Source: a virus
Lineage: Duplodnaviria; Caudoviricetes
Length of the DNA: 50,780 nt
Reading direction: 5' to 3' (one strand)
IMG/VR virus record: IMGVR_UViG_3300027763_000081
Location: 1-50,780 of that record
Both the position numbers and the translations under genes were made by a program. Under the pieces are notes generated by a model. It worked only from the letters and a program-made list of their open reading frames with translations, did not search any database and was not told the DNA's origin. Positions 5,430 to 50,780 of the stretch are shown here, piece by piece (the stretch's first letter is position 1; the number at the start of each line of letters is the position of its first letter).

Positions 5430-5890
5430 GACCAACCTTTCTGCCCAGTACGGGCGTTGTTGCCACTGTGATGTGCACGCACTAGCACGCGCTAGATGTC
5501 GTACACAGCATCGAGGCAGGACGTGGCAAGTCTCGCCTCGTGCGTGTGAGCGGGAGATGCTCACTTACATAGACGTAAGTGAGTGATCCCAATCACAGGC
5601 GAGAGACTTCTCGCTACTGCGTGACTGATAACGTCGCGCATTCCCCGTCGCGCACAAGTCCAACGGACCCTACCCCCGGTAGGCCCCCTGTCAGGGGGTT
5701 GATAAAGCAGGGGAAAGATGCTCCCCCTCTCAAATTTTCATTTTTCCCTACCGGGTCTTCCGGCCATTTCCCTTTTCTTATATATATTTCTCTCTACGTA
5801 GAGAAAGGAAAGGTTGGTATCCTCGGTACGGCACCGGTCCCCAAGACGAACAACCCCCCTGGGGTTTTTCGGACACCCAGGGGGGCAGGA
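5430..5890. other. Structured non-coding region: candidate origin, genome terminus or ncRNA
   Basis: Many stems and palindromes plus a TATATATA tract between the helicase and the first early gene. Confidence 0.6.
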
Positions 5891-5897
5891 TTGGAGC

Positions 5898-7298
5898 TCA
5901 GTGTTCGTCGTTCTGCGTCCTGCTCAGACTCAGCCCGACGATTCCCCGTTCGTGGCCTTGACTTTCAGGAAGCCGGGTCTGCCTCAGTCCCCAACTGGAC
6001 TCCTGACAGATCCTCACAAACAGCATGTTAGCCGGGACGTGCAGCCGGATTCTATTGGATTCCAGCCAGTCTTCCCACTGCTCCCTCAGGACTTCATTGG
6101 CCACGAACCCATCCTTCCTCTGCACAAACCGCGCATGGAGGAACGAGTCGAACGGGTTGTTCTGCAGGTGGTACAGCCGGACCGCATCTTGAGCTGCAGC
6201 CGGGATGGGCCACCGCTCGTTGATCTCCGACCCAAGCAGCCGCTGCGCACCACGTGCGGCCCACATGGCAATCCCCTGCATCTCGGCCTCCAACTTGTCC
6301 TCGAGGTACAGATCCTCCTTGCCCTCAAAGCTGACCTCAAAGGGCAGTACCAGCATCTTGCCGCTCAGGCCCCTACCCTTATTGGGCAGCACGGGGATCT
6401 CGTTGCTCTGCAACATGGGGGCCGCATTCACAATGACGTTCCGCTGCTGCCGCTGGTGCTTCACATTCACCGTCAGCGGATCCTGGCCTACGATGTTCTT
6501 GAGCACTCGGCAGACCCGTTCACCCGCTTTGGAGTCCACCTCATTAACCTCGTTGATGGCCAGCACCTTGCTGCGCTCCAGGCCATCCATTCCGAACTCA
6601 CCGCTCAGGTCCTCGAGGCTGCTGCTCATAAACGCCGCCCGCCCGATCAGCTTCCGCATAATCGTGGTGATCGTGCCCTTGCCGCCACGGATCTTGCCGT
6701 ACATCAACATCCACCGGGCGTACCGGCGGGTCCCCAGCAGGCAGTACCCCATCCACCTGGACAGCAACTCTGCCCACACCGGATCCCCGTCACCCCACTC
6801 CTTGACGGCCTGCTCCCAACGGGGGCACGCAAACTCCTCCGAGAAGTTGACCGGCAGCACCGCCGGATCGAACCAGTTCTTTGGGCGCTGCATGGTCTTC
6901 CCGGTCTCCGCGTTGAACAGCATGTCCGCAAACGCAATCGTGGTGTGCGGCGAGAAGTCACCCAGCGGCTTGCCAATCCAGCACGGCACGACCTCCGCGT
7001 CAATGCGGACCAGCGCCTCAAGCGCACGGGCAACTCCGTCAATCTTCTGCTTGTCCGGGCTATAACGCTCCAGGGCCACACCATTTCTGGTGGGCTTCTC
7101 CCAGACGGCATCCTCTAGGCAGACCCAGATCAGGTCCTTCAGGCGCTCATCGTCAAGCACGGCCCAGCGCTGTTCGCGCCAGACCCACCAGTCGTTCCGC
7201 CAACGGTACACCCCAGAATCCCGGAACTTCTCTTGCATCACGCGACGTGCAACCTTCGTCGGCTCAACCGAGTTGAGCGGGTCTTGTCTCCAATCCAT
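5898..7298 (-). CDS. D5/P4-type superfamily 3 helicase without a primase domain
   Basis: CPRWEQ, WMGYCL, Walker A GKIRGGKG, Walker B-like AINEV, motif C MLQSNEIP, VLPF. Confidence 0.9.
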   Translation of the reverse strand: MDWRQDPLNSVEPTKVARRVMQEKFRDSGVYRWRNDWWVWREQRWAVLDDERLKDLIWVCLEDAVWEKPTRNGVALERYSPDKQKIDGVARALEALVRIDAEVVPCWIGKPLGDFSPHTTIAFADMLFNAETGKTMQRPKNWFDPAVLPVNFSEEFACPRWEQAVKEWGDGDPVWAELLSRWMGYCLLGTRRYARWMLMYGKIRGGKGTITTIMRKLIGRAAFMSSSLEDLSGEFGMDGLERSKVLAINEVNEVDSKAGERVCRVLKNIVGQDPLTVNVKHQRQQRNVIVNAAPMLQSNEIPVLPNKGRGLSGKMLVLPFEVSFEGKEDLYLEDKLEAEMQGIAMWAARGAQRLLGSEINERWPIPAAAQDAVRLYHLQNNPFDSFLHARFVQRKDGFVANEVLREQWEDWLESNRIRLHVPANMLFVRICQESSWGLRQTRLPESQGHERGIVGLSLSRTQNDEH

Positions 7299-41440: not shown

Positions 41441-41845
41441 TTAATCGAGGAAGGAGGGGGCTTTCATTCCACCGGGGAGGACCATCCTCTCGCCTCCCAT
41501 GTAGACCGCCGGTGCTTCCGGCATTTGATTTGGTTCATCGAACTGCGAGAATACCGCCTCGTCCGCAGACTCCTGGCTGACCGGCTGCACCTCACGGGCT
41601 GCAGGTCGGTAGCCAGGGATGTTGACGACCATCTTCTTCTCGAACGTGATCCCGATATCTTCGCACCACTCGGCAAACACGCACATGGAGATGTTGCACT
41701 TGTGCTCGTTGTTGAAGATGTTGAGGAGACTAGAGCGGGACGCAATGTCGTCATGCTCCGCAACGATCTTTGCGATCTTCGGCTGGATCACCTGCTCGAG
41801 GATCTCCTGCTGGAAGTAGGTGAACGGGTTAACTCTGCTGCTCAT
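41441..41845 (-). CDS. Hypothetical protein, possible HTH
   Basis: 134 aa, ATGA coupling. Confidence 0.7.
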   Translation of the reverse strand: MSSRVNPFTYFQQEILEQVIQPKIAKIVAEHDDIASRSSLLNIFNNEHKCNISMCVFAEWCEDIGITFEKKMVVNIPGYRPAAREVQPVSQESADEAVFSQFDEPNQMPEAPAVYMGGERMVLPGGMKAPSFLD

Positions 41846-43065
41846 GCCATGTCTCCTTCGGGGACTGCGTCGTCTCGGTCACGCTGCACAAAGTTCTCCT
41901 GACGCACGATGTCCGGCCACACAACAGGGTCGGTCATCATGAACGGCAGGTACACGCTCGGCATGCCAGTGCCTTGGATCGGGTCGCCCATTTCGAAGTT
42001 GTCCGGATAGGGTTCGCGGTTCGCATATGAACGGCAAAACTTGAGTCGCTCATGGTACTGCGTGATCAGCTTCTCATCAAGCAAATGTGTCGCGGAAGTG
42101 TAAGAAATGTTGATGCACGGATTGGTGAGTCGCTCGGGCTCCATATGTAGATACTCACCCGTGCCCGTATACCACTCGTAGCATCGCTGCTCGTAGATGG
42201 CGGGATCCGGTTCACCAACAAACACCTTCTCATTGCGCGGTTCACCCTTGCGCGGACCAGACTTGAGCGGACTGGTGTCAAGCGTGAACGGGCGGTCCTT
42301 CATGCCGAACTCGATGGTCGGCTTCTGTACCGCAATGTGGATCACGCCACCCAGGCGCTCTGCGTTGTACTCTGCAAGATCCAGCTTGTTCATCACGTGG
42401 AAGTAGTGCTGGGTCTGGAACTCGATGGGGCACGCCTGCAGTCGCTCGGTTGCGCTGCTGCTTGTGGTCTTGAAGTCAACGATCCACAAGTCCTTGGGCT
42501 TGTTCGGGAACTTGATGAGCGCATCGGGCTGGATGACGCAGTCTTGGAAGCGGAGCATCGGCTCCTGCGCCACGATGTCCACGAAGTCAACCCAACCACC
42601 CAGCCTGCCGGTGGGGCCTTCGCCGTCGAGCTTGAACTGGACGGTCATAGAGGCAGAGAACCAGGCCCACGCAGTGCGGGCGTCCTTCTCCTCGCGCTCC
42701 TGGATCTCGCGGATGAGTTCGGCGGACTGGCCGGCAGTGCGACCGTAGGCACGGAGTTCCTGCAGGCGCAGGTCCATGACGCTCTCGTACATCTCGAGGG
42801 CGGCTTCCTTGTTCTTGCGCAGCGAGTAGGCGGCGAAGGCAAGGTGGGCCCACGATCCACGGGACAGGGCCGCGCTGTAGCGGGAGGCCTTGACCAGCCC
42901 GAGGCGGCGGCTCAGGTACCACGAGAACGGGCACGAGCGGAGCGAGCGGTAGTCGGACGAGCGGATGCCCACGTTGCGGGGTGCAATGCCGTGGTAGGAA
43001 AGCCATTCACGGGCATCCTGTCCACCGCTGGTGGGGACCTTGGGGGTTTCGGTTTCTGGTGGCAT
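41842..43065 (-). CDS. PD-(D/E)XK exonuclease (Cas4/RecB-like)
   Basis: SCPFSWYL, RGSWAH, QPDALI, IVDFKT, QTQHY. Confidence 0.88.
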   Translation of the reverse strand: MPPETETPKVPTSGGQDAREWLSYHGIAPRNVGIRSSDYRSLRSCPFSWYLSRRLGLVKASRYSAALSRGSWAHLAFAAYSLRKNKEAALEMYESVMDLRLQELRAYGRTAGQSAELIREIQEREEKDARTAWAWFSASMTVQFKLDGEGPTGRLGGWVDFVDIVAQEPMLRFQDCVIQPDALIKFPNKPKDLWIVDFKTTSSSATERLQACPIEFQTQHYFHVMNKLDLAEYNAERLGGVIHIAVQKPTIEFGMKDRPFTLDTSPLKSGPRKGEPRNEKVFVGEPDPAIYEQRCYEWYTGTGEYLHMEPERLTNPCINISYTSATHLLDEKLITQYHERLKFCRSYANREPYPDNFEMGDPIQGTGMPSVYLPFMMTDPVVWPDIVRQENFVQRDRDDAVPEGDMA

Positions 43066-43087
43066 GTGTTTTTCCTGAGGTTATTAA

Positions 43088-43360
43088 GCGAACGCGGGGC
43101 GCACCGCGACCCCCCGCGTTCGCGAATCTACGGGAGGAGGGTGTAGTATGTGCTTCACCCATGCTGATGATCTAATCTCTCGCCCAGGATGGGCAAAGAA
43201 CAAGATGCCGTGGGTTTACCGGCAATGCGGGTAATGGGAATCCCGCTCAGCAAATGGGATGTACACGTTATTTGGACTTGTTGATTCGGCGTACACAGAA
43301 AGAAAAACTGGTAAGTCTTTCTTACCGTTTTCCGGAACCGGAAAGTTCAAGAAAGTGGAA
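43088..43360. ncRNA. Candidate structured RNA plus operator-like palindromes
   Basis: 12-bp hairpin 43088-43123, four-way junction 43158-43258, palindromes 43310-43362. Confidence 0.45.
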
Positions 43361-43362
43361 CT

Positions 43363-46318: not shown

Positions 46319-46811
46319 GGTGTTCCTGAGTGATGAGCCACCTGGCTGCCCACTCACCCGCTGCCCTGCGCTGGCCTGCTGTGCTGGTGGGGAGGACGAT
46401 CAGACCGATGGCGAACTCCTGCAGGATACGCATAAGGGAGTCAATCGCAAGACCCGGGTGCGGCTTTCCCGGCTTGATTATGGGTGTCCCCACCAGCCCT
46501 TCAAGGAGGAGCAGCGGGCGAGCGGTCTCGTCCCGGAGGCGGCGGCAGCACTCGGCGAACCGGCGTCGGCCGTCAGGGGTGAGGAGATTCTGGGTGATCT
46601 CGTCAAGAGAACCCTTGCGCTCGACAACCGCTGCTCCCCCATCAAGGGCGTAGTCGCCCGTCTTCATCGTACGCTTCTGGGTACGAAGGCGTACCGTAAT
46701 ACCCGACTGATGGCACGGATCCTTGTTGGGGTCAAGGCAGACGATGTACTCGGGGAATGTGAACGGCTTCTTCTCCCGCTCGTCAACAAGGATGGTGTAC
46801 TCCCGCTTCAC
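46128..46811 (-). CDS. ERCC4/XPF-domain nuclease (probable resolvase)
   Basis: ILVDEREK, KTGDYAL, VVERKGSLDE, LLLEG. Confidence 0.88.
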   Translation of the reverse strand: MKREYTILVDEREKKPFTFPEYIVCLDPNKDPCHQSGITVRLRTQKRTMKTGDYALDGGAAVVERKGSLDEITQNLLTPDGRRRFAECCRRLRDETARPLLLLEGLVGTPIIKPGKPHPGLAIDSLMRILQEFAIGLIVLPTSTAGQRRAAGEWAARWLITQEHHVIRHTHDRREELPPGILHGGHGRNGSRQEADCNQAGLGNGQHGVRRKPELPEAEDLQQREHG

Positions 46812-48691
46812 TAGCCAGGAGTATATGGGTCAACCGGATCCGACAACTTGAAGGTGAACGGAATGTCCCGACCGAACATCTCTTGGCAGGTGTCGAAGAT
46901 GCACCGCTGGATGGTGTGGTGCGTATCGTCGTAGGTATTGGACGTCTGGAATACCAGCTCGTCGTGCAGCTGCAGGGACATCTGGCAACTGTCCAGAAGC
47001 AGGGACATGTTGGTCTGGAGCATGGACATGAACACGGCGGCGTGACCCTGGACCATGAACGACGTGGTGTCGTGCATAGTTTTGGCGGCGCTGTGCATAT
47101 ATGCAATGCCGGCATGGTCCAGATACAGATTGCCGTTCGTACCTGCCTGGTGCCACATGGTCCTCGTGTTCCTGTAGTCAGTCCACTGAGTGAAGACCGG
47201 GAGTTCCGCGATCTCGTCCTTCGTGATGAGGTTGGCGGACGTGGCGATGGCTGTGCGCCATGCCTTGTCGACACCGCCGCCGTTGACCCCCACCAGCAGG
47301 GCGATCTTGGAGATGCTGCGGTTGCTGCCGAGGCTGGAGTACGGGTCGGGCGAGAAGGCGAAGTCGTACATCCGGCGGTCACGGGACAGGGCTGCTGCGA
47401 TGCGGAGCTCGAAGGCAGTCATGTCCATGTGGTACAGGCTGTCGCTGGTGGGGACCATGAGACTGCGCAGTTCCTTGGTCCAAGTCTGTGCGGCTGGTCG
47501 GCGGGCGGACAGGCGGGCGGACTGGGTGCCGCCGTCGTCCGTGGGTGCGCCGTACCACGAGGGGTAGCAGATCCGCTTGTTGCCCACGGTGACACAGCCG
47601 GAGTTGACGGTGATGCCTTGGCCGCGGCTGATCTTGTCGGCCAGGATCTTGCGGCACTCCTGCTCCATGGATTCGTACTTCGAGCAAGCATTCAACTTTA
47701 TCATCAGGTGTACGTTCATGTCGTACTCGAAGTCGTACTTGATGATTGCCGACAGGACGTTCCGATTCTCCCGGTTGTTGCGCACGCTGCGCTTCTTGTC
47801 GGAGTACTCAAGTAGTCCAGCATCATGCAGGTTGTACATGATGCGGTCGGCTTGGGTCACCGCGTCGTCGATGAGCTTGCCCTGCGTAGTGCCGCTGCCC
47901 TCGCCGGACAGGATGACGCCCATGGTAAGGAGGTCTGCCTCGTGCTTCTCGTAAGCGAGACGGCAGTCGTCCGCGTAGTCGAGTAGCTTGTCCTTCTGGA
48001 ATGCCTGGCCGGTGAGCGACAGGTTCTCGATGTTCCAGAGGCGGTCGGAGTGGAACATGATGGAGGATGGCGTGAGCTTCTGGCCACGCTCGTCGGCAAT
48101 GCGCTGGCACAGGGCGCGTGCTGCGAGCACGGCGTTGTGTGTGTCCTCCGCGTTGTACTTGATGGCGTCGGCGCACATCGGGAACTTGAACTTCCCGTCC
48201 TTGAGTGTGCGCTCGTAGGCGAACGCGCCAAGGGCTGGGCCAAGCGCTTTGAGCGAGCGCTCCTTGCGTGCACCGGAGTGGATCCACGAGAGGATCACGG
48301 TGTCCACAAGGGTGGGCTTTGGGTTACTGCTGAGGATGTAGTCCAGCGACTTGAACTGCCGCAGGTACATGAGGTCGTACACGATGTTCGAGCCGACGAT
48401 GGTGTCGGCCTTGCGCAGCATGTCCTCGACGACCATGATGTCGTTGCTGCACATGTCGATGACCGCTGATTCCCCAGGCTCCCAGCTGGTGGGGTCCGAC
48501 GGTTCGCCTTCGACGATGGTGATTGCGCATTGGGGAACCATGCGGCAGGGCAGGATGGTGCCGAGGTCAACCTTCGTGGAGAGTCCGGGATGGAAGACAG
48601 TCTGGTCGGGGCATGGTGCGCCCTTGTTCTCGAAGAACTCGAACGCGCCGTAGGTTTCGATGTCGAGCGAGATGATGAGTGGCTTGCTCAT
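46811..48691 (-). CDS. polA: DNA polymerase family A with 3'-5' exonuclease, divergent
   Basis: ExoI DIET, ExoII NIVYD, ExoIII YNAED; ARLS, motif A DMTAFELR, motif B RSISK, VQG, motif C HDE. Confidence 0.9.
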   Translation of the reverse strand: MSKPLIISLDIETYGAFEFFENKGAPCPDQTVFHPGLSTKVDLGTILPCRMVPQCAITIVEGEPSDPTSWEPGESAVIDMCSNDIMVVEDMLRKADTIVGSNIVYDLMYLRQFKSLDYILSSNPKPTLVDTVILSWIHSGARKERSLKALGPALGAFAYERTLKDGKFKFPMCADAIKYNAEDTHNAVLAARALCQRIADERGQKLTPSSIMFHSDRLWNIENLSLTGQAFQKDKLLDYADDCRLAYEKHEADLLTMGVILSGEGSGTTQGKLIDDAVTQADRIMYNLHDAGLLEYSDKKRSVRNNRENRNVLSAIIKYDFEYDMNVHLMIKLNACSKYESMEQECRKILADKISRGQGITVNSGCVTVGNKRICYPSWYGAPTDDGGTQSARLSARRPAAQTWTKELRSLMVPTSDSLYHMDMTAFELRIAAALSRDRRMYDFAFSPDPYSSLGSNRSISKIALLVGVNGGGVDKAWRTAIATSANLITKDEIAELPVFTQWTDYRNTRTMWHQAGTNGNLYLDHAGIAYMHSAAKTMHDTTSFMVQGHAAVFMSMLQTNMSLLLDSCQMSLQLHDELVFQTSNTYDDTHHTIQRCIFDTCQEMFGRDIPFTFKLSDPVDPYTPG

Positions 48692-48900
48692 TGGTTCTTC
48701 CTGATGTCGAAGGTCATGTTCTGGTGGATGCGCAACTGGGCTGTGGTGTAGTGACGGAGATGTCCGCCGTTGCAGAGAGCGATGCACCACACGTCGTTCT
48801 CGAACGTGCCGCCGTCACGGACGTATATGGCGTAGCCATCCTGTCCATCGCACGTGATGACAGGAATGGGCGTGTCGAATTGGTGGACGCTATTGCTCAC
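48688..48900 (-). CDS. Hypothetical small beta protein
   Basis: 70 aa, coupled to polA. Confidence 0.75.
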   Translation of the reverse strand: MSNSVHQFDTPIPVITCDGQDGYAIYVRDGGTFENDVWCIALCNGGHLRHYTTAQLRIHQNMTFDIRKNQ

Positions 48901-49081
48901 GGGCCTCGTACTCCTGGATCTTGGAGAGGTACATGGTGTTGCGAGCCTTGGCTTCCTTCAGTTCTTGCCGCAGCGTGGCGATGAGTTCGTTCTGCCGTTC
49001 GATCTGATTGGCAGCAGCAATCATGATCGAGGGAGCGAGGCACTCGCTGTTGGTGCGGAGTTTGTTGATGATGTCACTCAC
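48890..49081 (-). CDS. Small coiled-coil protein
   Basis: GTG start MSDIINKLR at a GTGA overlap. Confidence 0.7.
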   Translation of the reverse strand: MSDIINKLRTNSECLAPSIMIAAANQIERQNELIATLRQELKEAKARNTMYLSKIQEYEAREQ

Positions 49082-49278
49082 TTGTCTTCCTTCTTGTAGC
49101 AGTCCCATCCACGGTCGGCGGCAATGTCTTCTGGTGCGCTGTATACGGTGAGGCAGTCGGCCATAGTGCTGCAGTACATGCGCCTTGCTTGGTCGCGTTC
49201 TTCGGTGAGGGTTGCGATCTGCTTGCGCAGAGACATGATGAGAAATGCCATGCCTGTAATTGGATGATTGCTCATCAC
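49078..49278 (-). CDS. Hypothetical protein
   Basis: 66 aa; LTEERDQARR...RGWDCY. Confidence 0.7.
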   Translation of the reverse strand: MMSNHPITGMAFLIMSLRKQIATLTEERDQARRMYCSTMADCLTVYSAPEDIAADRGWDCYKKEDK

Positions 49279-49487
49279 TTGTCCTTCCAGATGTAGAGGT
49301 GGCCGGGGCCGTTGCCCTCGGGGTCACGCATGAACAGGCACTCGTACTTGGTGCCCTTCTTCTCGATGACTATTCCGTAGCAGGTCTCGTCGTTCTCATC
49401 GCTGTTGTCGACGATGACTTGGGTGATGATGCCGCCTACCAGGGGCAGGAGATGTTCGACTTCGGGGTCTGTGTTCTTCTTTGGCAT
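49275..49487 (-). CDS. Hypothetical protein, 70 aa
   Basis: MPKKNTDPEV after GAGGA; ends RDPEGNGPGHL. Confidence 0.75.
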   Translation of the reverse strand: MPKKNTDPEVEHLLPLVGGIITQVIVDNSDENDETCYGIVIEKKGTKYECLFMRDPEGNGPGHLYIWKDK

Positions 49488-49502
49488 GGGTTCCTCGGAT
49501 GT

Positions 49503-49872
49503 AAACCATGCGAGGGGTCGGCTCCGTCGTTGGGCCGACCCCTCGCTGGGCAGAAAGGATCGTGAAGATACTCCACCAGCCAGAGCCTTATCGTGGTGAC
49601 CGCGAGTGGCGTGCAAAGAACTGTGCGCGGATATCACGGCAGGGAGTATGCAGAGGCTTGGGTGCTCAGAGGAGGGCGGGTGGCTGGGGAGTACCGCTCC
49701 ATGCGTACGGTCCGTCGACCGCTCCCTGGTAAACCAGGACGCATGGTGTTCATGGGATTTAGCGATCGTTTGCAATCGATGCTAGATGTCCCATGGTTTG
49801 GTGGGGGCAGGTCATGGCGCTATGGACTGGCACAAGCCAGGGCATCCACGTCAGAGATCCATGCCTGCCCCC
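49503..49872. ncRNA. Candidate large structured ncRNA (about 370 nt)
   Basis: Five consecutive paired domains fill the intergenic space. Confidence 0.55.
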
Positions 49873-49878
49873 GTGTGA

Positions 49879-50487
49879 TTAGGACCACGAGGGTCGTGGA
49901 ATGTACGCGTCGCGAACAACCAGTTCGCCGGTGAATGCACAGATGGGACCGCGCATGTACTCGCCCGTGTTGAGGGCAGGCGGTTCACGCTGGGCCAGTT
50001 GCTTGGCCAGCGGGAAGTCGAGGTCCATCGGGTGCAGGCAGTCGATGTACTCCGCGCACTCGAGACCGGGCGGCATCATGCGGCACGGTTCGTCAAGGAT
50101 GCGGTAGTACAGGCGGGCGTACAGGTGGGAGTCATCGAGGTGGTCCGTGTTGATGAGGTAGATACCTCCCTTGGACAGGGCCTCGATGATGGTCCACAAC
50201 TCGTCGTGCAGTTCCTTGTTGAGCGTCAGCTCGTGGGGAGGGACGGGGACGATGCCGAACTCAAGCAGTTGGGCGCGGCCGGTGGTGGGCGGCGAGTGCT
50301 CAAGGTCGTAGACCATGGACCAGTACTGCTTGTCCTGGTCCTTCGGGTTGTTCTTGAGCAGGTCGTTGATGCACTCGGTGCGCTGCTTGAGGAAGTCCTT
50401 CTTGCGCTTGACTGCATCCTTCTGCAGTTCCTTGACGGGGTGCGGGCTGGTGAACGGACGGGTGCGGGATGCAAAGGTGGTGGTCAC
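49879..50487 (-). CDS. Conserved hypothetical protein, probably host-derived
   Basis: ELWTIIEAL...IYLINTDHLDDSHLY...RDAYIP. Confidence 0.8.
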   Translation of the reverse strand: MTTTFASRTRPFTSPHPVKELQKDAVKRKKDFLKQRTECINDLLKNNPKDQDKQYWSMVYDLEHSPPTTGRAQLLEFGIVPVPPHELTLNKELHDELWTIIEALSKGGIYLINTDHLDDSHLYARLYYRILDEPCRMMPPGLECAEYIDCLHPMDLDFPLAKQLAQREPPALNTGEYMRGPICAFTGELVVRDAYIPRPSWS

Positions 50488-50699
50488 TGGGAATCCTTGC
50501 TGTTGATCTGCTCTTCGAGGGACTTGATCTCGGACGTGAGCTTGTTGATGTGATCGATGGCCTCGATCAAACGCAGGCGTGCGTCGAGACCGGACTTGGC
50601 CAGGTCAGTCAGCGTCTGGTTGTTGAAGTTGTAGCAGTTGACGTAGTACTTGTCGGCACGCTCGGCAAAGTCAAGTGCCTTCTTGGCAGTGTCATTCAT
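50484..50699 (-). CDS. Small coiled-coil protein
   Basis: Start overlaps the UDG stop (ATGA) across the circular join. Confidence 0.75.
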   Translation of the reverse strand: MNDTAKKALDFAERADKYYVNCYNFNNQTLTDLAKSGLDARLRLIEAIDHINKLTSEIKSLEEQINSKDSQ

Positions 50700-50780
50700 A
50701 GCAAACCTTTCTGCCCTGCGGTCAGCAGGAGCTGGTGGGGAGAGACGATGCGTGGCTCCGACGAGGAGGGCATGTCTCCC
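50644..50780 (+). repeat. Terminal direct repeat, right copy
   Basis: Matches 1-136; this copy keeps ORF 50484-50699 in frame. Confidence 0.95.

Follow-up and report, generated by a model that had tools for sequence, protein, structure and literature searches.

A Predicted RNA Family with a Conserved Multi-Domain Structure among Replication Genes of Uncultured Freshwater Phages

Introduction

GOLLD and ROOL are large orphan structured RNAs associated with phages, in which covarying helices are combined with conserved junctions and loops and with a variable periphery. The put RNAs of HK022, the EAR element of Bacillus, and the RNase III sites of the T7 early transcript are cis-acting intercistronic RNAs of one or two hairpins (60–120 nt); put and EAR are processive antitermination RNAs, which modify RNA polymerase and so allow read-through of downstream terminators. 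Few RNAs are at once large, intricately folded, strongly covarying, and rich in invariant unpaired nucleotides, and the earlier ones were ribozymes, riboswitches, or RNP scaffolds. The pseudoknot of T4 gene 32, an autogenous translational operator of a phage replication gene, is treated in PMC10690425, as is a catalogue of candidate structured RNAs from IMG/VR with motifs of 29–151 nt. A 2026 preprint on coevolutionary mining concerns other systems.

The window analyzed here is an IMG/VR virus record (IMGVR_UViG_3300027763_000081; 50,780 bases, completeness rating 97%) from an uncultured freshwater phage lineage. A 391-nt gap (49488–49878) separates minus-strand genes in it and holds a multi-domain structure that comparison with relatives shows to be conserved, non-coding, functional on the minus strand, and linked to the upstream gene; we regard it as a new family of structured RNA. 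An earlier note on this DNA had proposed a non-coding structured element in the gap that matched no known RNA, which is supported by our covariation analysis, Rfam searches, and reading-frame checks.

The element resembles GOLLD and ROOL: it is phage-borne, hundreds of nucleotides long, and composed of several domains, with covarying helices, conserved junction and loop nucleotides, and a variable periphery. However, it has no Rfam match to them, is smaller (core of 125 nt, 200–375 nt as a whole), and lies between cistrons of a replication operon, after one particular gene; a promoter of its own was not found. Like put, EAR, and the T7 RNase III sites, all of which act on their own transcript, it is a predicted structured RNA located between genes inside a long transcript, on the sense strand. 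In contrast to them, its core is 125 nt long, may contain a pseudoknot, and includes about 60 invariant unpaired nucleotides; it matches no Rfam family. By analogy with the T4 gene 32 operator, the structured RNA adjoins a gene of the replication module, and the product of this neighbor may bind it; known autogenous operators, however, are located 5′ of the gene whose product binds, whereas the element lies 3′ of its candidate partner gene. The catalogue of PMC10690425 also drew on IMG/VR and on comparable evidence, namely covariation in homologous intergenic regions. Six related contig names and a 17-nt word of the core were not found in the supplements of PMC10690425 that were searched; a fragment of the element may be listed in two large files outside that search. 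Our literature search found no published description of the element. It is a candidate new Rfam family, adjoining a widespread protein family without assigned function, and a testable entry point into the control of replication genes in uncultured freshwater phages.

Genomic Setting and Folding

All genes around the element are located on the minus strand in the order primase ... 202-aa gene, element, small genes, polA, nucleases (Table 1); the element lies in the replication module, about 700 nt upstream of polA. Its first base follows the stop codon of the 202-aa gene by 6 nt, and its overall stretch is about 300–390 bases. The gap had been considered unusual, and it is indeed long; it is not unique, since a rough gene map of the window contains 11 other gaps of more than 100 nt, two of which also fold unusually well.

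Folding of 49488–49878 gave −189.8 kcal/mol on the plus strand (z −4.81) and −175.3 kcal/mol on the minus strand (z −7.10). On each strand, this was better than 100 of 100 dinucleotide shuffles, the control that the earlier note had suggested. The five sets of stems that it had listed are all present: 49510–49522/49534–49546, 49569–49582/49681–49693, 49699–49706/49739–49746, 49751–49757/49789–49795, and 49803–49811/49864–49872. Their reading as five consecutive domains of one RNA did not hold among relatives, where domain 1 behaves as an independent module, six contigs lack domain 5, and close relatives have unrelated domains in place of 3 and 4.

Table 1. Predicted features of the element and its surroundings in the window (domain numbers are those of the earlier note).
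Feature	Position	Strand	Basis
71-aa gene	50484–50699	−	ORF map
202-aa gene, no assigned function	49879–50487	−	ORF map; element immediately 3′ of its homologues
5′ domain (domain 5)	49803–49872	−	covariation, 93.6% of cells paired
Conserved linker ACCAA(A/G)CCA, between 5′ domain and variable hairpin	49794–49802	−	alignments
Variable hairpin (domain 4)	49751–49795	−	fold and alignment of relatives
Three-way junction (domain 3)	49699–49746	−	fold and comparison of relatives
Conserved core (domain 2)	49568–49694	−	alignment A5, covariation, model R1
Core: closing helix, two-part	49681–49694 with 49568–49582	−	alignment A5
Core: conserved 13-nt 5′ bulge CCCGCCCUCCUCU	49668–49680	−	alignment A5
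Core: GAGC/GCUC helix	after the 5′ bulge	−	alignment A5
Core: helix P2	49659–49663 with 49599–49603	−	alignment A5
Core: nearly invariant 26-nt apical segment, closed by the two-part helix P3	49621–49646	−	alignment A5
Core: conserved 12-nt 3′ bulge CACCACGAUAAG	49587–49598	−	alignment A5
Separate 3′ module (domain 1)	49510–49558	−	stems vary, loop kept among relatives
Ribosome-binding site GAGGAA and downstream 70-aa gene (start 49487)	49275–49497	−	ORF map, relatives
Three small genes between the gap and polA		−	ORF map
Family-A DNA polymerase (polA)	46811–48790	−	ORF map, protein family search
ERCC4-type nuclease, beyond polA		−	ORF map, protein family search

Distribution among Relatives

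Relatives were gathered with alignment-based searches using the 202-aa protein (13 IMG/VR and 18 metagenome loci); a wider search added more. Besides the window, 22 IMG/VR and 12 metagenome contigs had the element directly behind a homologue of the 202-aa gene; some of these contigs may represent one phage sampled twice. There were 28 unique variants, 24 of which were of the main type. Conserved DNA followed the stop codon in every locus with a homologue of at least 49% identity and enough downstream sequence, and every contig that extended far enough had a homologue of the 202-aa gene immediately 5′ of the element. Eighteen viral matches were obtained in a scan that does not depend on the protein, with an invariant core 19-mer as the query, and all of them had the core. 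Seven contigs were new: six had the 202-aa homologue directly upstream, and the seventh was cut by the contig end.

The same 19-mer had 17 matches in 185,579 species genomes. These are chance hits: none contained the core (model check of 8), and no prophage copy was found in this set. An exact scan of IMG/VR for the 37-nt hairpin of the window gave no matches. Among 50,697 GenBank phage records, there was no match to 801 nt (distant mode), to the 202-aa protein, or to a close polA; these DNA and protein searches thus revealed no cultured relative. According to covariance model R1, there is one copy of the element per genome.

Four further unique variants (L019, L020, L036, and L037; protein 43–44% identical) had a divergent version at the same place. 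Its closing helix was similar, with two compensating changes, and the 3′ hairpin was the same; this version folded at z −4.9 on the sense strand, and its interior was not alignable to the main type. Model R1 did not detect the divergent version in L005, L007, L019, L020, L036, and L037. Behind distant protein homologues of 38–41% identity (L038, L097, L098, and L100), the element was absent, so the protein does not need it in general. The linkage to the upstream gene may also reflect nothing but common descent within a narrow phage lineage. Relatives differed in the gene behind the element, with at least eight different N-termini; therefore, no single regulated gene can be named.

Neither Pfam nor PHROG contained a family for the 202-aa protein. 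Its 2216 database homologues (E up to 0.001) were all unnamed and without a Pfam domain; the conserved motifs of the family include HDELWT, NTDHLxDxDLYxRLYxRILDE, and RDxYLPRP. The AF2 model was confident (pLDDT 85, pTM 0.83) and had no convincing counterpart in the PDB by Foldseek (best E 3.9); VIA-align wide returned helices only (best Z 5.8), and the ESM Atlas had no usable match. We failed to find a known RNA-binding motif in the protein.

Conserved Core

The core, about 125 nt in the window and 113–127 nt among 24 variants, is the best-conserved part: its mean pairwise nucleotide identity was 81%, compared with 63% across these loci for the 300 nt at the 3′ end of the upstream gene. Its pairing was analyzed in MAFFT alignment A5 of these variants, which was not fitted to any structure. 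Pairing was retained in 93.3% of the cells vs. 28–45% with partners slid by 1–3 columns, and nine pairs (35 cells) had changed on both sides; none of 500 shuffles reached the covariation score. In the 5′ domain (MAFFT alignment, likewise not fitted to structure), the values were 93.6% vs. 33–50%, with 12 pairs (62 cells) changed on both sides and none of 500 shuffles reaching the score. The slid controls of the core and the 5′ domain contained 1–5 pairs with double changes, vs. 9 and 12. All variants belong to one narrow lineage, and kinship inflates shuffle-based statistics; the slid-partner controls keep relatedness and give the stronger support. The covariation among homologues that the earlier note had named as a check was thus present, with compensating changes exceeding relatedness-keeping controls, as in conserved structured RNAs generally.

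The clearest helix was P2, with the versions ACCGU/ACGGU, AUGGA/UCCAU, ACGAA/UUCGU, AUC/GAU, and GAC/GUC. Covariance model R1 matched the window with 130 bits (E 2e-30). About 60 nearly invariant unpaired nucleotides are situated in the core amid the covarying helices. The pattern is aptamer-like, and is just as compatible with a catalytic or protein-binding RNA. Since variation is absent from most of the conserved unpaired nucleotides, they do not distinguish among protein binding, ligand binding, catalysis, and tertiary folding. The distance from the core end to the next start codon was 15–100 nt, and the 3′ strand of the closing helix is able to form a small hairpin, followed by a U-rich tail.

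The helices GAGCCT/AGGCTT, TCGTGGT/ATCACGG, and CCGCG/CGCGG that had been drawn inside domain 2 correspond to the minimum-energy fold of the window alone. They were 69–70% paired in 24 relatives, and no pair changed on both sides; we rejected them for this absence of covariation. Part of them, a 4-bp pairing between the apical segment and the 3′ bulge (columns 58–61 with 101–104), has three pairs standard or G-U in 24 of 24 variants and the fourth in 22 of 24. It hardly varies and suggests a candidate pseudoknot. A GCCU/AGGC pairing may compete with the GAGC/GCUC helix.

Peripheral Domains

Every main-type variant kept the core, one of two middle modules, and the linker (the latter except in L012 and L016). 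The 5′ domain is a long predicted stem (GGGGGCAGG/CCUGCCCCC and CAUGG/CCAUG) that encloses an apical hairpin and the conserved internal loop UCUCUGACG. This domain was missing in L012, L016, and L087–L090 and is, judging by these contigs, dispensable; the linker was kept in L087–L090 in spite of this loss. We considered whether the linker (CCCCACCAAGCCA) might pair with the closing helix (3′ strand) and rejected this, as the A/G variation of the linker is uncompensated and the window allows only a weak pairing.

The three-way junction is one of the two alternative modules at its place. The other, a hairpin, combines a GUAC loop with a conserved internal loop in which AGAUCC faces GUGUA or GGGAA. 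At the position of the variable hairpin, relatives had unrelated hairpins. L023 is near-identical to the window elsewhere, and both middle domains are replaced in it by another hairpin and the GUAC-loop module. In the longest variant (L009/L042, IMGVR_UViG_3300044631_002617; about 370 nt to the core end), both kinds of middle module occurred in tandem, the three-way junction followed by the AGAUCC-type hairpin; this arrangement points to possible module duplication or recombination inside the element. In L054 (IMGVR_UViG_3300016466_000672, approximately 1260–1280), the frame of the 202-aa homologue appears to lack its usual stop codon, 6 nt ahead of the 5′ domain, and to continue into this domain.

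The 3′ module consists of CCUUUCUGCCC, which is anti-Shine–Dalgarno-like, and a 13-bp G+C hairpin whose loop contains a conserved ACGACGG; the stems differed among relatives, while the loop was kept. It was found in 12 of the 28 unique variants, before unrelated genes, and in L021 an extra gene lies between the core and the module, about 650 nt from the 202-aa gene. Its absence from many relatives and its position behind this extra gene indicate that the 3′ hairpin is a separate unit. The flank CCUUUCUGCCC (49550–49558) is the exact complement of GGGCAGAAAGG, the Shine–Dalgarno context of the 71-aa gene (site 50706–50714), and may sequester ribosome-binding sites. The 9-mer had five exact sites in the window (plus strand 62, 2991, 5436, and 50706; minus strand 49550) and 19 sites with one mismatch vs. 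13.8 expected, which is not a significant enrichment.

Two alternative pairings had been put forward as signs of a switch: ATACTCC with GGAGTAT, and AAACCAUG with CAUGGUUU (49503–49510 with 49792–49799). Both exist in the sequence; neither showed covariation, and a switch is not supported. The AAACCAUG/CAUGGUUU pairing recurs in all six unique variants in which linker and 3′ hairpin module occur together (the window, L010, L011, L023, L027, and L051), a small number of sequences. In L011 and L051, it includes a sense-strand G-U; in L012 and L016, the linker is missing and the 3′ flank is different. The recurrence of CCATG was also confirmed as enrichment, with eight sites (both strands) in 49503–49872, where about 1.4 would be expected given the 187 sites of the whole window. 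They form halves of stems, and CCATG is not a conserved motif because relatives carry other sequences there.

Functional Strand and Transcription

An A-C cell on the sense strand is a G-U pair on the opposite one, so the two strands can be compared directly. In the core, 58 G-U cells were counted on the gene-sense (window minus) strand vs. 7 A-C cells, several of which are alignment artefacts; in the 5′ domain, the ratio was 9 to 4. The claim that G-U pairs favor the plus strand is thus reversed among relatives, with 67 cells fitting the minus strand vs. 11 for the plus strand. One-sided changes at 10 core positions remained paired on the sense strand only. U5-G125 (18 of 24 variants) and U60-G68 (22 of 24) become A-C mismatches if read on the plus strand, and sense-only U-G pairs also occurred in the alternative middle module (L021 and L053) and in the 3′ hairpin of L023. 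The helix TCGTGGT/ATCACGG does have two plus-strand G-U pairs in the window; a C-to-U change in it (three sequences) pairs on the minus strand only. Since one-sided changes keep pairing as sense-strand G-U, we assign the function to the minus strand, the same as that of the flanking genes and opposite to the one proposed earlier. The correction bears on experiments: probes, transcripts, and constructs need the gene-sense strand.

We failed to find a sigma-70-like promoter on either strand of 48800–50780. The element starts so close to the stop codon (6 nt) that there is no room for a promoter of its own. Four terminator-like sites were recorded in the same scan, none of them on the plus strand inside the gap. 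In four metatranscriptome runs from four studies, short contigs (151–235 nt, depth 2–7) matched parts of 49200–50500 at 85% or more. Three contigs covered the core and middle domains (49596–49783), one (49804–50030) ran from the last part of the 202-aa gene into the 5′ domain, and those of two runs also covered pieces of the upstream gene. The runs were picked by shared words, which favors the conserved core, and their contigs carry no information on strand, ends, or level, nor are the uncovered stretches informative; they fit co-transcription with the 202-aa gene, with carried-over DNA as another possible source. Most likely, the element is made within a long minus-strand transcript of the replication module.

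Tests for Known RNAs, Coding, and Origin Features

A search with the 4227 models of Rfam 15 gave no match at the gathering score in the whole window, in line with the failure of the earlier note to recognize a known RNA. At E up to 10, five chance-level matches were recorded in 49300–50100 (mir-4488, RNAI, AHBV_epsilon, SNORA42, and CC2171; 12–20 bits vs. cut-offs of 45–75). ARAGORN predicted no tRNA or tmRNA genes in the window. A hammerhead ribozyme consists of a CUGANGA box, a GAAA box, and three stems around the cleavage site. CUGACGA is present in the 5′ domain of most relatives (CUGACGU in the window), with no GAAA box after the next stem and no Rfam match, and the hammerhead was rejected. 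A group I intron, which would interrupt a gene whose exons on either side make up a single frame, was rejected as well: the upstream protein ends as in homologues without the element, downstream genes are different and have their own ribosome-binding sites, and Intron_gpI was not matched. Downstream genes of one pathway and a conserved expression platform, as expected of a riboswitch, were not observed either, with at least eight different genes and a non-conserved spacer to the start codon.

Both strands contain long open frames, one of which, on the plus strand, is preceded by GGGCAGAAAGG and GTG. No coding frame was conserved among the variants: the same conserved nucleotides are read in different frames, some frames contain stops, and indels of 1–2 nt are common. 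The best antisense frame also shifts or stops between variants, with indels that are not multiples of 3, and all codon positions of the core are equally conserved.

Replication origins of dsDNA phages contain iterons and/or an A+T-rich unwinding stretch. No iterons were found in the gap, where the only direct repeats were two short two-copy ones. There was no A+T-rich stretch in 49488–49878 (lowest G+C in 60-nt windows 0.50); the value of 0.48 in 49450–49509 belongs to a stretch overlapping the downstream gene.

Possible Function

We propose that the folded core and the interchangeable peripheral hairpins form a cis-acting intercistronic platform in the replication-operon transcript, perhaps bound by a protein, which would be the simplest partner; we would give this reading an even chance. 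The bound protein would set processing, stability, read-through, or translation of the transcript, and thereby the expression of the replication genes behind the element. The most obvious candidate partner is the product of the gene just upstream. Nearly invariant unpaired stretches held by covarying helices suggest a surface recognized by a specific partner, and the position inside the operon suggests action on its own transcript. Within this explanation, we infer the transcription as RNA, the cis action, and the identity of the partner.

P1 C4 and P4 CI RNAs are cut out of an operon transcript. A stable trans-acting ncRNA produced in this way could bind or mimic a host RNA or protein or act as an anti-defence decoy, for example, and we regard such an RNA here as fairly unlikely. 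Its size, multi-domain build, interchangeable periphery, and invariant loops are like those of orphan phage-borne ncRNAs, and the strong terminal helices (the 5′ domain and the closing helix of the core) could protect a processed RNA. The coverage of the core by contigs in three of four RNA runs agrees with it as well, but these runs were chosen in a way biased to the conserved core. Neither an own promoter nor a clear terminator was found in 48800–50780, and each genome has only one copy. It is rather unlikely that phage replication operons encode a new functional class of RNA whose active part is the core, such as a transcript-cutting ribozyme, a sensor of a replication metabolite, or the RNA subunit of an RNP with the 202-aa family.

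A replication-operon RNA of a new class, either a riboswitch-like sensor or a self-cleaving ribozyme, would explain the covarying helices around nearly invariant unpaired nucleotides, the candidate pseudoknot, the short distance from the core to the next start codon, and the ability of the 3′ strand of the closing helix to form a small hairpin before a U-rich tail. We consider it improbable: Rfam contains no matching riboswitch or ribozyme even at E up to 10, the downstream gene differs among relatives, the expression platform is not conserved, and CUGACGA of the 5′ domain (CUGACGU in the window) lacks the other hammerhead boxes.

Very improbable is an element acting as DNA, i.e., a replication origin, a single-strand priming site similar to the ssi and sso signals, or a recombination boundary between mosaic modules. 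The element does lie in the replication module close to polA, the gene content varies immediately behind it, and relatives show swapped middle modules; folded single-stranded DNA tolerates G-T wobble, so the strand bias is compatible with a single-strand signal. However, the gap lacks iterons and an A+T-rich stretch, compensated long-range helices and a possible pseudoknot are unexpected for a duplex origin, and 5489–5897 offers a better origin candidate.

The plus-strand ncRNA of the earlier note, antisense to the flanking genes, has hardly any chance of being correct. The plus-strand fold also beats the shuffles, and TCGTGGT/ATCACGG has its two plus-strand G-U pairs, but this helix does not covary; the G-U tally, the A-C mismatches at U5-G125 and U60-G68, and the lack of a promoter-like site in 48800–50780 and of a plus-strand terminator-like site in the gap argue against it. 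That the gap is a small protein-coding gene, or G+C-rich spacer DNA folded by chance, is almost certainly wrong in spite of the long open frames, as no frame is kept among the variants and chance is unable to give the covariation of the core and the 5′ domain.

Other Gaps of the Window

Five gaps in the plus-strand structural block had z values between −1.5 and +1.4, i.e., without a folding signal. The gap at 5489–5897 (409 nt), located directly behind the primase gene (5898–7298, minus strand), folded at z −7.8 on the plus strand and −4.6 to −4.9 on the minus strand and contained numerous inverted repeats around an A+T-rich run (…GAGAGAAAUAUAUAUAAGAAAAGGGAAA…). A replication origin or regulatory region is more plausible here than in the 391-nt gap. 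The gap at 43066–43362 (297 nt), upstream of the exonuclease gene (41842–43065, minus strand), folded at z −5.3 to −6.5 and contained several near-perfect hairpins, one of them with a 12-bp G+C stem.
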